A DNA stretch of 64,000 bases from Octopus vulgaris. Lineage: Eukaryota. The DNA is taken from contig OX597832.1 in assembly GCA_951406725.2 (NCBI GenBank), forward strand, positions 49,290,001 to 49,354,000. Reading direction: 5' to 3'. Position numbers and translations under genes: made by a program. Below are positions 50,124-61,582 of this stretch, piece by piece. The notes beneath the pieces were generated by a model, which saw only the letters and a program-made list of their open reading frames with translations, searched no databases and was not told the DNA's origin. How positions within the stretch are numbered: the stretch's first letter is position 1; each line of letters opens with the position of its first letter.

Positions 50124-50157
50124 TTTCTGTCGAAGAGCGTAGGCTCGAAACGTCAAA
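50124..50157 (+). ncRNA. minimal type I hammerhead-like motif, U6 variant (copy 1)
   Basis: TTT-CTGTCGA-A-GAGC-GTAG-GCTC-GAA-ACGT-C-AAA. Confidence 0.65.
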
Positions 50158-52390
50158 TACTTTTCCATTTTCCCCGAGTGTTAAACGAATACACCTGCTT
50201 GTTTTTCCTACACCTGTCTTCGTCTTTTGTTTTTCTGTAACTTTGAACAATAGATAGATAGATAGATAGATAGATAGATAGATAGATAGATAGACAGACA
50301 GACAGACAGACAGACAGACAGACAGACAGACAGACAGATAGATAGATAGATAGATAGATAGATAGATAGATAGATAGATAGATACATACATACATACATA
50401 CATACATACATACATACATACATACATACATGCATACATACATACATACATACATACATAGACGTATGTATGTATTTATGTATGTATGTATGTATGTAGG
50501 CATGCATATATGTATGTATGTATATACACAACATATCTATGCAAGTGTATATTCCTTTCTGACCTTTGTATGTACGTGCTTGAGCGCATATATGTGTGTG
50601 TGTGTGTCTATACGTGTGTGTTGTATGTCTTTGTGTGCCTGCGCACGTGTGTGTACACAAGTATATAACATGCATGTGTATATGTGTGAATGGAATGTAT
50701 GTACGAATGCGTATATCTCATTGGTAGTGGACTCCAAAACTTACGCGTGTGTTTGTATACATGCATTACACTCGTAACAAACATCTATTTAACCTATAAA
50801 TGCATATATATATGTTTATATATATATATACACAAATACATATATATATATATATATATATATATAAATGCATATGTATATGTTTATATATATATATGTA
50901 TATATATATATATATATATATATACATATATATACATAAATGCATATGTTTATACATATGTTTATGTATATATATATATATATATACATATATATACATA
51001 AATGCATATGTTTATACATATGTTTATATATATATATATATACACACAAATATATATATATATAAATGCATATGTATATGTTTATATATATATATATACA
51101 TATATATATACATAAATACATATATATATGTTTATATGTATATGTATATATATATATATATATATATATATATATATATATATATATATATATATATATA
51201 TATATATATATATATATATATATATATATATATATATACTGTGTGTGTGTGTGTGTGTGTGTGTGTGTGTGTGTGTGTGTGTGTGTGTGTGTGTGCATGT
51301 GTGTGTGTCTATGACCATACGTGAGTATTCTGTGTTCTGGACAGGATGTGGTTCTTTCAGTCACTGCTATTAGGTTTATTGTTCAACAAGAAAAGGAGTT
51401 TTAATGGCAAGAAGTATGACCGTTAAAGAAAGGCTGGAGGACATGAAATAACCGGATGTCGATATACCGAATAGAAGAATGGCTGACATTTTGAAATTAC
51501 CAATAATGGTACTGAACTTCAGAAATCTTTCCAAGATTTTACTCCATGTTTTCATTTATGCAATTTTTTTTTTATGGCAGGGCGGGGGGGCTCCTTTTTC
51601 TTAGTTAATCTTTAAATAGATTGCGTTAGCTATGAAAATCGTTTGTAATAATGTTTTATCTGAAACCCTAGAAAAATTGGAGTCATAGAGTGAGAAGGAG
51701 AAGGGAGAGCGAGACAGATAGAGACAGAGAGAGAAAGAGACAGAATGACAGACAGACAGACAGACAGACAGACAGACAGACAGACAGACAGACAGACAGA
51801 CAGACTGAGACACAGAGAGAGCGACTGAGGACAGAGAGAGAGAGAGAGAGAGAGAGAGAGCGTGCGAAAGAAAGAATTCAATGAATGGACGAATGTATGA
51901 ATGAATGAATGAATGAATGAATGAATGAAAGACGAGAAGAAAAGTAAAGACAGAAAGAAAGAAAGAAAGAAAGAAAGAAAGAAAGAAAGAAAGAAAGAAA
52001 GAAAGAAAGAAAGAAAGAAAAGAAGGAAGGAAGAATGTATCAACTGCTTTTTCTAACAATTCAAGCGATTTCACAGAAGCTACTTTTTTAGGGTTTCGAG
52101 AAATATATAACCATTGCAGTGTTGTATAGATCAACAGAGTAAGAAACGATAGCATTGTTAAAGAAAAAAACAATTATCAGAGCATCGTTTTTCGGTAGGC
52201 CTAGAAGCCATTACAATTTATCTTCGTTTTTATCAATTTCGTTTTTGCCACGCAAGATGGTAGCATTAAAATCACCAGCAATGTGCTATACAAGAGTCAA
52301 TTCATGATCTTTTCATAAAAAAATAATAACTTGATCCACGCCCAAACAAACATTTCAGTGTTAAATAAAGAAAATTTACAGAAAGAATGT

Positions 52391-52442
52391 TGCTCCAAAT
52401 AGGGTTCGAACTCGTTACATCGGTGTCCTAAACCATTGAAAC
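52391..52442 (-). pseudogene. decayed tRNA-Thr-like fragment lacking most of the anticodon arm
   Basis: TGCTCCAAATAGGGTTCGAACTCG...CGGTGTCCTAAACCATTGA aligns to TGCCCCAAGTGAGATTCGAACTCA...CAGTGCTCTAAACCACTGA. Confidence 0.5.
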
Positions 52443-52449
52443 TTTTTTT

Positions 52450-52749
52450 TCCTTCCTTCTTGAGCCACGCCTAGCTCATTAGGGCCGGTTTCCTGGTTTC
52501 CTTGGTGTTTAGGTTCCCCACCTGGACGGGACGCCGGTCCGTTGCAGGTGAGCTGCAAGATGCAGGAAGAAAGAGTGAGAGAAAGTTGTGGCAAAAGAGT
52601 CAGCAGAAGTTCGCTATTACCTTCTGCCGGAGCCGCGTGAGGCTTGGGTGTTTCGCTCATAAACACACACATCACCCGGTCTGAGATTCGAACCCGCGAT
52701 CCCTCAACCGTGAGTCCGCTGCTCTAACCACTAGGCCATGTGCCTCCAC
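52450..52749 (-). mobile_element. tRNA-derived SINE (C/D-related)
   Basis: Head GTGGAGGCACATGGCCTAGTGGTTAGAGC...GGTTCGAATCTC; tail shared with family D (GAAACCGG...CTAGGC). Confidence 0.75.
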
Positions 52750-53436
52750 TCTTAAGAATCTTAAGAACTGCTTTTTTGTGGAGTACTGTTGAGCAGGATG
52801 TTCCGTTGGTCGGATCATCTGGAGCCCTCGGCATAACCGATGGAATTCCACTCAGCTAAATGTGCAAATACATGGAAGGATTATTGGCTGAAGATTTGAT
52901 CGTTGTTCCCTGTTTTGATCGCTGTCTCACAACATTGTATTTATCAAACACAACCTTGATGAAAAATGTTTAACGCCATTTCTTCCAACTTTACGTTCTC
53001 ATTTCAAATTCCGTTGGGGTCGAATTTACCTACCCTCTTTTCAGGGGTCAACAAAATACGTCCAGTTGATTACTGGGGTTGATACAATCAACCTACCTTC
53101 TCACTCAAAATTGTGCCAAAATTCGAAAGCAATGCTACGTATCTCTTTTGCTCCACACACGAAACCAACAAATATTACGTAGTGTTAAAATTTCTACGAC
53201 GCGAGTGTATTGGCCAGGCTTACGTCATGAGATCGTAATATTAGATGGTACGTCTGATATTCCTTCCTGATACGAATAAATGAAGTGAAATTGATATAAC
53301 CACCATTGTAATAGTGTATTGCACATGTCTGTAGAATAATTACCTCAAGAGAGTAGAAGAAAATGTTTGCCGCCTAAACTATATTGGGTAAAGGTTTGCA
53401 CACCAAAATATAATTACATTATGTATAGTAGGTGGG

Positions 53437-59190: not shown

Positions 59191-59332
59191 ACATTTCAAT
59201 TCCCGAGCCTTATACTAATATATCTGTTTGTTTTCTACACCATCTGTCTACGTCTTTTGTTCTTTTCATGAATTCCCCCCTCCCTATATATATATATATA
59301 TATATATATATATATATATATATATATATATT

Positions 59333-59691
59333 ATATTAAATTATAGATAAAACCACTATTAGGCAAATCAAACAATGAAAAACTTAGCCAATACATAAAA
59401 TTAATTAATTTATATTATTTTAAATATATATCAAAAGTATTAAAAGTTTAATAAAAGATAATGAGTAAAACACTACGATCGTTTCATGGCTGTCCAATTC
59501 GTAATAATTCGAGTTATGATTACAGTCAATCTTTAGGTAATTGAAATATTTATCTTAGCGAGGTTTAGCAATGAACTTTTAATACTTTTGATATATATTT
59601 AAAATAATATAAATTAATTAATTTTATGTATTGGCTTAAGTTTTTCATTGTTTGATTTGCCTAATAGTGGTTTTATCTCTAATTTAATATA
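59333..59691. repeat. inverted repeat with arms of about 115 bp
   Basis: ATATTAAATTATAGATAAAACCACTATTAGGC...AAAAGTATTAAAAGTT is mirrored at about 59575-59691. Confidence 0.85.
59469..59541 (-). ncRNA. degenerate hammerhead relic in the inverted-repeat spacer
   Basis: CTAAAGA (G5 to A)-TTGACTGT...ACAGCCAT-GAA-ACGATCGT-A; same helix III as the 22595 motif. Confidence 0.45.
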
Positions 59692-60068
59692 ATATAATAT
59701 TTTACTATAAAATTGGATTCAATCCTAAATCTGATTTTTCCCTGTAAGTTTGGATTTATTCCCTAATATTTTATTATTAATTTATATGTGTATATATATA
59801 TATATATATAGGGATCGATTTGATTCGACTAAAGGCGGTGCTCCAGCATGGCCGCAGTCAAATGACTGAAACAAGTAAAAGAGTAAAAGAGAGAGAGAGA
59901 GAGAGAGTAACACCGTTTACTTTTCACCAATACATCAAGCTGTTCCTGAAAAAATAGGAGTAGGGAATTTCATGCATAACAGAGGGTTCCATTTATAACA
60001 GAATTACATAACAGAGTTACATAAAGAATTAGACTCAAAGATTTTTCGAGTATTATATTCTGCTCGTA

Positions 60069-60560
60069 TGTGGAGGCGCGTGGCTTAGTGGTTAGTGGGT
60101 CAGCATCATGATCGTATGATCGTGGTTTCGATTCCTGGACCGGACGACGCGTTGTGTTCTTGAGCAAAACACTTCCTTTCACGTTGCTCCAGTCCACTCA
60201 CCTGGCAAAAATGAGTAACGCTGCGATGGACTGGCGTCCCGTCCAGCTGGGGAGCCGGGAATCGAGCTCACAGCCTCACGATCGTAAGTTTGACGCTCTA
60301 ATCACTGAGCCATGAGTTTTCACGTATGTATATGTATATATATATATATATATATATATATATATAGAGAGAGAGAGAGAGAGAGAGAGACAGACAGACA
60401 GACAGACAGAGAGAGACAGAGAGAGAGAGAGAGAGAGAGACAGAGAGAGAATTCACAAAAATAACAGAAGACGAAGACAGGTGCTGTAGACAACATACGC
60501 GATAGAAACCGGGAAACCGGGCTCTCGAGCCTGGCTAGGCTTTAAAAAGGGCGCATTTAT
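60069..60560 (+). mobile_element. SINE family D interrupted by an inverted local insert (about 60253-60497)
   Basis: 5' part ends at CCAGCTGGGG and resumes at ACATACGCGATAGAAACCGGG; the uninterrupted form is seen at about 20365-20410. Confidence 0.75.
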
Positions 60561-61546
60561 TTTTTCTTATATTCTGCTCGTATACTTTTATAGTTTCGTG
60601 TCGCTGACTTCGACTTCATTTTTTTCAAAATATTGGGCGAGCAAAATGTATATCAAATATTTACCAGATTTTGTTTCCATCTGTAAAACATGCGTTGTTT
60701 TACAAATATAGACCACGGCCCTCGCCTAATATATCTACGTTATCACAAAGTGCCAATAGAGTGTCGGTTCCAGATCGTAAAACAAGTAAATTGTGAAAGC
60801 GATTGCAAATTATTCAAATGAGGAAATTTTGGTGGGGGGAAAAGAGGCAAAAAACATGAAGCGGTATGAATCGTTGTGTGAATTTCTGCCAAATGTCTGC
60901 ACATACAAATTTATCAGCTGGCATTCTTCAGCATGTAAGGGGAGGTCTGTACGCTCGTTTTTTTTCATACACATTTGCATGTGTGTATACGTGCGTGTGG
61001 CTTCGAGTGTGCGAGTGTGTGTGTTTTGTGTGTGTATGCGTGAGCGAGTTGTTACATGTGCCAAGTTTTTATCTTCAGTGTCAATGTCTCCCTACTTGAG
61101 AACGACGTAAGCAAATACCTCGAGATACGGCATTTCGTTCATAGTAAAATAAGAGAACTCTGAAAGCCTGTGTCTTTTATCATTTATCGCTTATTTCTTT
61201 TTGTTTTGTTTTTTGTTGTTTTTTTTTTTTTACTTGTGTCAGTTATTAGAATGAGGCCGGCCAAGCTGGGGCACCGCTTGGAAAGTTTATAAAGTTCTTT
61301 GTAATTCAACGAATCGACACAACTGCTTATCTTGTTTTTTTCAGCTTGATACTTATTCTATCCTTTTCTGTTTCCTGAACTGCTAAGTCACGGGGACGAA
61401 ATCAGTTCAAAACCGATTGCGAAGCGGTGAGTGATGAGGCACAAACGCAAACACAGACACACACACACACACAAACATATATATATATATATACATATAT
61501 ATAGCCACTACACACATTTTTTCTCTCCTTGTTTTTTTAGGTGTCC

Positions 61547-61582
61547 CTTTCTGTAGAAGAGCGTAGGCTCGAAACGTAAAAG
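61547..61582 (+). ncRNA. minimal hammerhead-like motif, U6 variant (copy 4)
   Basis: CTTT-CTGTAGA-A-GAGC-GTAG-GCTC-GAA-ACGT-A-AAAG. Confidence 0.65.

Follow-up and report, generated by a model that had tools for sequence, protein, structure and literature searches.

Minimal type I hammerhead ribozymes (min-HHR) have been known in metazoan Penelope-like elements since 2014 (Cervera and De la Pena, PMC4209133). Their consensus, as drawn in Fig S3 of that work, runs from a U-rich stretch through CUGANGAH, a G10.1-C11.1 pair, GAAA, a palindrome and UH to an AU-rich stretch, and the core variants reported there fall at C3 and G8. Related clades spread without hammerheads, and for several Penelope-like clades the target is given as (TA)n (PMC8557442). 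Short repeats termed retrozymes, of the kind lacking long terminal repeats (LTRs), have in turn been proposed to derive from Penelope-like elements (PMC7229834; bioRxiv 10.64898/2026.07.22.740005). Here, we analyze a stretch of 64,000 nucleotides from the genome of Octopus vulgaris (contig OX597832.1 of assembly GCA_951406725.2, positions 49,290,001 to 49,354,000), hereafter the window. Within these 64 kb lie five pieces of a short repeat family (copies c1 to c5), four of which carry a hammerhead-like motif with U in place of A at core position 6. Our survey of public contigs supports this U6 as a trait of the family as a whole.

The pattern CTGTNGAAGAGCGTAGGCTCGAAACGTH was searched in the window with up to three mismatches allowed, and the result was compared with 100 dinucleotide shuffles. 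It gave four matches without a single mismatch, all on the forward strand (at 50127, 58357, 59159 and 61551), and none in the shuffles (0/100), in keeping with the four copies reported in a preliminary description of this DNA. Each copy displays, in order, helix I, C3 U4 G5 U6 N7 G8 A9, an extra A, stem II, G12 A13 A14, ACGU and H17 (Table 1; numbering as in PMC4209133). The extra A after A9 is unpaired, and stem II is closed by G10.1-C11.1 with four Watson–Crick pairs in all copies. Helix I spans 4 bp in c3 and c4 and 3 bp in c1 and c2, with 4 bp in c2 if it is shifted by one. G12 A13 A14, A15.1-U16.1 and a non-G H17 are present throughout, as is the palindrome ACGU (15.1-16.1), which allows a dimeric helix III; from c1 to c4, N7 is C, G, G and A, and H17 is C, U, U and A. 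The hammerhead reading of the preliminary description was supported, and the minimal type I architecture of Penelope-like elements was recovered in all respects except position 6: the A6 of the Penelope-type minimal hammerheads is absent, with U in 4/4 copies. A register shifted by 3 nt restores A6, yet position 4 then becomes G, A or C and stem II shrinks to 1 bp; we rejected it because of the broken U4 and this 1-bp stem. Rfam (E ≤ 10) returned no hammerhead family at c3, which agrees with the expectation that standard searches would miss the motif, and none among the best 150 of 501 matches over the whole window. Elsewhere in the window, six loose CUGANGA..GAAA matches were found; two were folded, and neither gave a hammerhead.

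All five copies end at a microsatellite on their 3' side—(GATA)n in c1, (TA)n in c2 to c4 and (CT)n in c5—and the insert sizes, with bounds judged by eye, accord with the earlier figure of about 150–250 bp and with its mostly (TA)n, once (GATA)n, termini. C3 stands at a near-constant distance from the 3' end (123, 124, 126 and 126 nt in c1 to c4), and the 5' extension upstream of C3 varies (60, 23, 125 and 49 nt). The copies are solo with ragged 5' ends; neither tandem unit-length repeats nor a pseudo-LTR or a tandem or inverted partner was seen in the window. Target-primed retrotransposition is expected to leave just such a trace: 3' ends that are fixed, 5' ends that are ragged and insertion into microsatellites. 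All four motif-bearing copies cross the predicted cut site and none starts there, which implies that the template RNA was uncut or re-ligated at that point. Tail-anchored searches and BLASTN with c1, c3 and c4 found no further decayed core-bearing copy in the window; as they returned the same four and c5, the four were not selected from a larger set. A 16-nt tail box, exact in four of the five copies, lies some 30 nt short of the 3' end and may serve reverse transcription as a second cis element. Long-range pairing between this box and the motif was considered and rejected: it differs between copies, and its z-scores are not significant.

Table 1. Repeat copies, predicted hammerhead parts and other features, in positions of the window
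Feature	Position	Strand	Details
Copy c1	50067..50249	+	about 183 bp, with an approximate 5' bound; (GATA)n/(GACA)n array at the 3' end; flanks divergent
Copy c2	58334..58480	+	147 bp; (TA)n arrays on both sides
Copy c3	59034..59284	+	251 bp, the longest; (TA)n arrays on both sides
Copy c4	61502..61676	+	175 bp; between two (TA)n arrays; 5' end starts on TA shared with the array
Copy c5	60449..60498	-	3' tail alone, without the hammerhead core; ends at a (CT)n array
c1 hammerhead-like motif, C3 to H17	50127..50154	+	U6 at 50130, N7 = C, H17 = C; helix I 3 bp
c2 motif	58357..58384	+	U6 at 58360, N7 = G, H17 = U followed by one extra A
c3 predicted minimal type I hammerhead	59155..59190	+	
c3 helix I	59155-59158/59187-59190	+	CUUU/AAAG, 4 bp
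c3 core C3-A9	59159-59165	+	U6 at 59162; extra A at 59166
c3 stem II	59167-59170/59175-59178	+	GAGC/GCUC, GUAG loop
c3 G12-A14	59179-59181	+	
c3 palindrome ACGU	59182-59185	+	predicted cut 3' of 59186
c4 motif	61551..61578	+	U6 at 61554, N7 = A, H17 = A; helix I 4 bp
16-nt tail box	59241..59256 (c3)	+	2 changes in c3; exact at 50211, 58440 and 61634 (+) and 60468 (-)
tRNA-Thr(CGT) genes	46053-46126; 54054-54127; 56067-56140; 57537-57610		four, near-identical; Rfam 70-74 bits, also ARAGORN
Elements of about 410 bp	about 53436-53860; 54655-55062		two, in opposite orientation, either side of the tRNA gene at 54054
Tandem arrays of a repeat of about 184 bp	8463-9013; 30555-30936; 46973-47422		further pair at about 56615-57000
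Mobile-element protein fragment	16228-16539	-	decayed; presumably mariner-like
Mobile-element protein fragment	24737-25183	-	decayed; presumably RTE-like
Mobile-element protein fragment	39782-40078	-	decayed; presumably R4/Dong-like

The wider family was surveyed in contigs of four public runs (four organism labels), aligned at 80% likeness on a 252-nt stretch of c3 (59033–59284), with 16,473, 12,698, 8,207 and 5,917 contigs aligned per run and differences counted from 2% upward. T>A changes number exactly three per run, all listed (at 59153, 59186 and 59213), with none at 59162, and T>G changes number two per run, all listed, with none at position 6. A6 and G6 are below 2% in 4/4 runs; C6 is below 2% in three of the four, the run X2 having two T>C changes of unlisted position. 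Right beside position 6, N7 changes from G to A in 27.5, 26.3, 30.3 and 29.5% in the four runs, which shows that the site is not blind to change, and H17 is A in 58–67% and otherwise mostly U. The real polymorphisms of the family are G/A at 7 and A/U at 17. Since A6 stays below 2% in all four runs while N7 and H17 are polymorphic, U6 is well supported as a family-wide trait, as opposed to decay, and the preliminary description was right on this point; fixation is established only above the 2% detection limit. Its remark that G never occurs at position 17 likewise stands (below 2% in 4/4 runs) but constitutes weak evidence, because T>G is rare everywhere, only two such changes reaching 2%. The variants that it noted at N7 and H17 are all present in the four copies; among them, the C of c1 is rare in the contigs, being below 2% at N7 in 4/4 runs and at H17 in the three runs other than X2. 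Changes of the CpG type reach 1.8–4.1% at G12, 4.1–8.7% at C15.2 and 3.6–8.0% at G16.2, as expected of neutral decay of inserted copies. Summed depth is not a copy number; overlap counting sets rough bounds of about 4,000–5,000 to 130,000–155,000. The runs contain at most 0.29 of the sampled words of c4 and may belong to species other than that of the window.

The public contigs extend beyond the 5' end of c3; their cover of the 3' end of the repeat is thin, and only low-depth joints are listed. One joint, from 59185 to 59148 in the runs X1 and X2 (depth 33 and 44), corresponds to a duplication in which only the core is repeated, head to tail, with a spacer of 9 letters. It represents a single locus whose two motifs stand about 47 nt from each other and is a candidate for a natural dimer.

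The core and the flanks of the repeat differ sharply in variability. Copies c1 to c4 share 80–82% pairwise identity in the 3' flank, while the core differs at positions 7 and 17 only. In a refined four-copy alignment, 2 of 28 core columns are variable against 37 of 87 in the 3' flank (Fisher p = 4e-4), and with homopolymers and gap edges masked the flank retains 16 variable columns of 46 (p = 0.011). Each of 15 overlapping flank windows of 28 columns contains 8–12 variable columns. This upholds the earlier claim that variation is concentrated at N7 and H17 and is not uniform along the motif. Among the public contigs, four changes within 59151–59192 exceed 10%, namely N7, H17 and the two predicted bulge bases of an extended helix I. 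The chance of all four falling in the nine free positions out of 42 is about 0.001, or 0.005 with the weaker change at G59190 as a fifth, for free positions chosen by the analyst, in part with the data already in view; for the core by itself and its seven free positions, the corresponding chance is 0.056. A core less variable than its flank suggests selection on the motif, which would act in the source elements as opposed to the inserted copies. This is most simply read as several source lineages that retained the core but came to differ in the flanks.

The preliminary description had further envisaged a parent with reverse transcriptase (RT) and GIY-YIG domains upstream of the CACTACACACAT segment. 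Such a parent did not emerge here: no open reading frame (ORF) for RT and GIY-YIG lies next to any copy in the window, and upstream of the segment the 5' extension of c3 has no forward frame that stays open for 20 codons. The published octopus Naiad and Hydra-1 families were tried as the parent and gave no match, the DNA of Hydra-1_oBim being compared in part (PMC8557442). Seven short motifs of the family were absent from the supplement text of the same paper, although any one of them might have been masked there by a line wrap. A natural U6 hammerhead or an octopus U6 family was found nowhere in the literature searched, which did not cover Lunse 2017, Perreault Fig S7 or Repbase/Dfam; Lunse 2017, on small hammerhead variants, is known to us only through the review PMC6765202, and a U6 report there is possible. 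A 2026 repeat annotation of O. vulgaris (PMC13282606) reports Penelope-like families, with no ribozymes mentioned in the part of its text consulted; the octopus U6 repeat itself is probably catalogued in the Zenodo library of that annotation.

Beyond the octopus, the exact core with positions 6 and 7 left free had no match in collections of metagenomes, GTDB genomes and viral contigs. A relaxed U6 pattern gave 110 matches at 108 loci in 3 of the 64 metagenome parts. Just 13 of the 110 have a stem II of at least 4 bp in the U6 register, and two of these a helix I of at least 3 bp, with weak stems. A set of 15 of the 108 loci is related and resembles minimal hammerheads, and is better read in a shifted register with A6; accordingly, this relaxed scan revealed no second U6 family. 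These loci (L001, L010, L012, L015, L016, L027, L029, L030, L044, L050, L058, L067, L083, L085 and L100) have a UG insertion ahead of U3-U4-G5-A6 (12 of 17 matches), followed by an extra base and by a stem II of 5–7 bp; their helix I is short, and the search pattern forced part of the motif. The set resembles the U2a-G2b-U3 variant mentioned in PMC7151607. Three single loci (L052, L062 and L075) have a stem II of 7–8 bp in the U6 register and a helix I of at most 2 bp, and may be decayed canonical copies or chance matches.

We read the octopus repeats as 5'-truncated tails, likely spread into microsatellites by the RT and endonuclease of Penelope-like elements, with a family-wide U6 and a slowed hammerhead predicted to cut only as a dimer. 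We give this reading as a whole an even chance. Its two parts differ: a Penelope-type origin with a family-wide U6 is highly probable, whereas residual, selected cleavage, granted that origin, could equally well prove true or false. Mobilization was likely of the Penelope type, by target-primed reverse transcription. Source elements would be transcribed, their endonuclease would nick a microsatellite, and reverse transcription would begin at the fixed 3' end, cross the intact motif and mostly halt within about 250 nt. In the source RNA, the motif would act as a slowed ribozyme, cutting only when two copies pair via ACGU. Slow cutting would allow the tail of about 98 nt and the core to be copied together, a benefit we infer from the need for an RNA that is continuous (or re-ligated) at the cut site.

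Folding of 50-nt fragments predicts stem II with a probability of 0.97–1.0, and helix I is marginal in the predicted monomers (0.0–0.39). The A6C hammerhead of phage Bcep176 cleaves at <0.1 per min (PMC3088659), with values of 0.004–0.05 per min at 1–3 mM Mg2+ and about 0.3 per min in Mn2+ (PMC7151607). Other observations pull the other way. In c3 and c4, U6 favors a U4-G5-U6/A15.1-C15.2-G16.2 helix in the monomer (P 0.56–0.84), which drops to P 0–0.2 if A6 replaces U6 (the helix has P 0.21–0.25 in c2 and about 0.05 in c1). A double hammerhead is drawable, yet it is not the predicted minimum-energy fold of two copies, and folds of the entire element do not surpass those of shuffles (z -1.6 to +2.2). 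In another hammerhead, A6C lowered the rate from 0.3 to 3.6e-6 per min at 0.3 mM Mg2+ (PMC7151607); in a full pairwise mutagenesis of a type III hammerhead, every single and double mutant of the CUGA region had low activity, except for a C3/G8 swap (PMC9901934); and the minimal hammerheads of Penelope-like elements cleave poorly in vitro even with A6 (PMC4209133). No covariation is seen in stem II, so conservation does not prove structure, and the 16-nt tail box is conserved nearly as well as the core. The survey, too, has its bounds: 12 difference rows are known from per-run tallies and are not individually listed, the contig alignment favors young, consensus-like copies, and an A6 source family rarer than 2% would stay hidden. 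The same low-depth pieces recur in X1, X2 and X7; the runs come from close relatives and hence are not independent tests. To these may be added that no parent ORF, pseudo-LTR or tandem partner was found around the window copies.

Several explanations compete for what the motif does at present. It may be a tuned-down but active U6 hammerhead, selected through amplification of 10^4-10^5 copies, which we entertain tentatively: U6 would weaken the core and lock the monomer in the alternative helix, and cutting would require a dimer, a protein partner or a different metal ion. Alternatively, the motif could be catalytically dead and kept for another job, such as a folded RNA handle for the RT or a chaperone, or a promoter element of a pseudo-LTR at the DNA level. 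The conservation of the core relative to the flanks despite the strongly deleterious nature of changes at position 6 would fit such a role, as would the copies that cross the cut site, the amplification of Naiad elements without canonical hammerheads (PMC8557442) and the alternative helix favored by U6 in c3 and c4. However, the polymorphic sites are precisely those that catalysis leaves free (N7 and H17), G12, A13, A14 and A15.1-U16.1 are retained apart from CpG decay, and a position-6 variant with low but real activity exists (PMC3088659). On balance, loss of catalysis with retention for another job is rather doubtful.

It is improbable that U6 was an inactivating founder change in a non-autonomous lineage, amplified by the proteins of a rare A6 parent and under no present selection. 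Such a history would be consistent with the lack of a visible parent and with the 2% limit, below which a small source family would go unseen; the flanks mutate fast and are rich in T, the contig alignment under-counts mid-core changes, listed decay being uneven or missing at two of the three CpG sites, and the column test rests on only four full copies. Against it, the 3' flanks differ by 18–20% pairwise while the core does so at 7 and 17 only, this contrast survives the masking of homopolymers (p = 0.011), and different flank types stand beside the same core in the public contigs. Other retroposons also end at microsatellites, and the repeat could be the 3' end of another class (a microsatellite-targeting short or long interspersed nuclear element, SINE or LINE), the likeness to hammerheads being chance or fossil capture. 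The missing Rfam match, the missing parent ORF and the mismatch to the published octopus Naiad and Hydra-1 sequences would agree with this; but all core positions other than 6, the extra base, G10.1-C11.1, the palindrome and helix I fit the published consensus, and the distance from the motif to the 3' end is about that of Penelope-like elements, making an origin from another class very improbable.

A successful family with a fixed change at a position that mutagenesis marks as essential separates the options for the role of the hammerhead. Cleavage by the U6 motif would mean that the consensus for hammerheads has to be widened, along with every CUGANGA descriptor; if it does not cleave and the fold is nevertheless conserved, the motif has a non-catalytic job. 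Descriptor-based counts miss a very abundant motif in the octopus host group. Should the tuned-down but active hammerhead be real, core-relaxed searches would reveal hidden hammerheads in families scored as having none.

The window also contains features apart from this family (Table 1). Four near-identical tRNA-Thr(CGT) genes are present, and one of them is flanked by the two elements of about 410 bp, which carry inverted repeats at their termini, enclose a short run of (TTAGGG)n and look by eye like miniature inverted-repeat transposable elements. The repeat of about 184 bp that forms tandem arrays is presumably SINE-like. A protein search with the retroelement-like fragment at 39785-40078 had as the best of its 6 matches an Octopus vulgaris predicted protein (83% identity over 64% of the query), in accord with an octopus host; the search gave no family name.

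Compared to the min-HHRs (PMC4209133), the octopus motif has the same extra base between A9 and G10.1, the same G10.1-C11.1 pair and an ACGU palindrome that replaces helix III, along with a helix I of 3–4 bp, U-rich 5' and AU-rich 3' flanks and mostly solo copies. It differs in its U6, the min-HHRs having A6 in 56/56 representative rows of Fig S3, and in a short stem II (4 bp) without covariation. A6 is likewise found in 34/34 Penelope-type motif rows in File S2 of PMC8557442, a study whose search used the CUGANGA string and relaxed descriptors. The A6 of these 90/90 published rows is no proof that other bases are rare, because both searches fixed A6 or nearly so. The hammerhead of phage Bcep176 (PMC3088659, PMC7151607) shares a natural substitution at core position 6, and its cleavage is low yet detectable and better in Mn2+; in contrast to that single phage intergenic ribozyme with C6, the octopus motif has a fixed U6, a minimal architecture of the dimer type and a place in a high-copy family of animal retroposons.

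Among octopus elements, Hydra-1_oBim and Naiad_Obim/Ovul (Craig 2021, PMC8557442) have the host group and the (TA)n target in common with the U6 family. Hydra-1 also has its hammerhead near the 3' end, whereas the core of Hydra-1_oBim has A6, another stem II and a 4-bp helix III; the Naiad 3' ends show no likeness to the U6 family by eye. Non-LTR retrozymes (PMC7229834; bioRxiv 10.64898/2026.07.22.740005) are similarly short non-coding repeats with a type I hammerhead, but they form tandem unit-length repeats with canonical cores, unlike the solo octopus copies with ragged 5' ends and a non-canonical core. In its fixed 3' end, 5' truncation, (TA)n target and hammerhead near the 3' end, the octopus family matches Penelope-like elements (PMC8557442). 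Judged by its sequence, the motif would be a variant, and not a member, of the Penelope-type minimal hammerheads, since the defining A6 fails.

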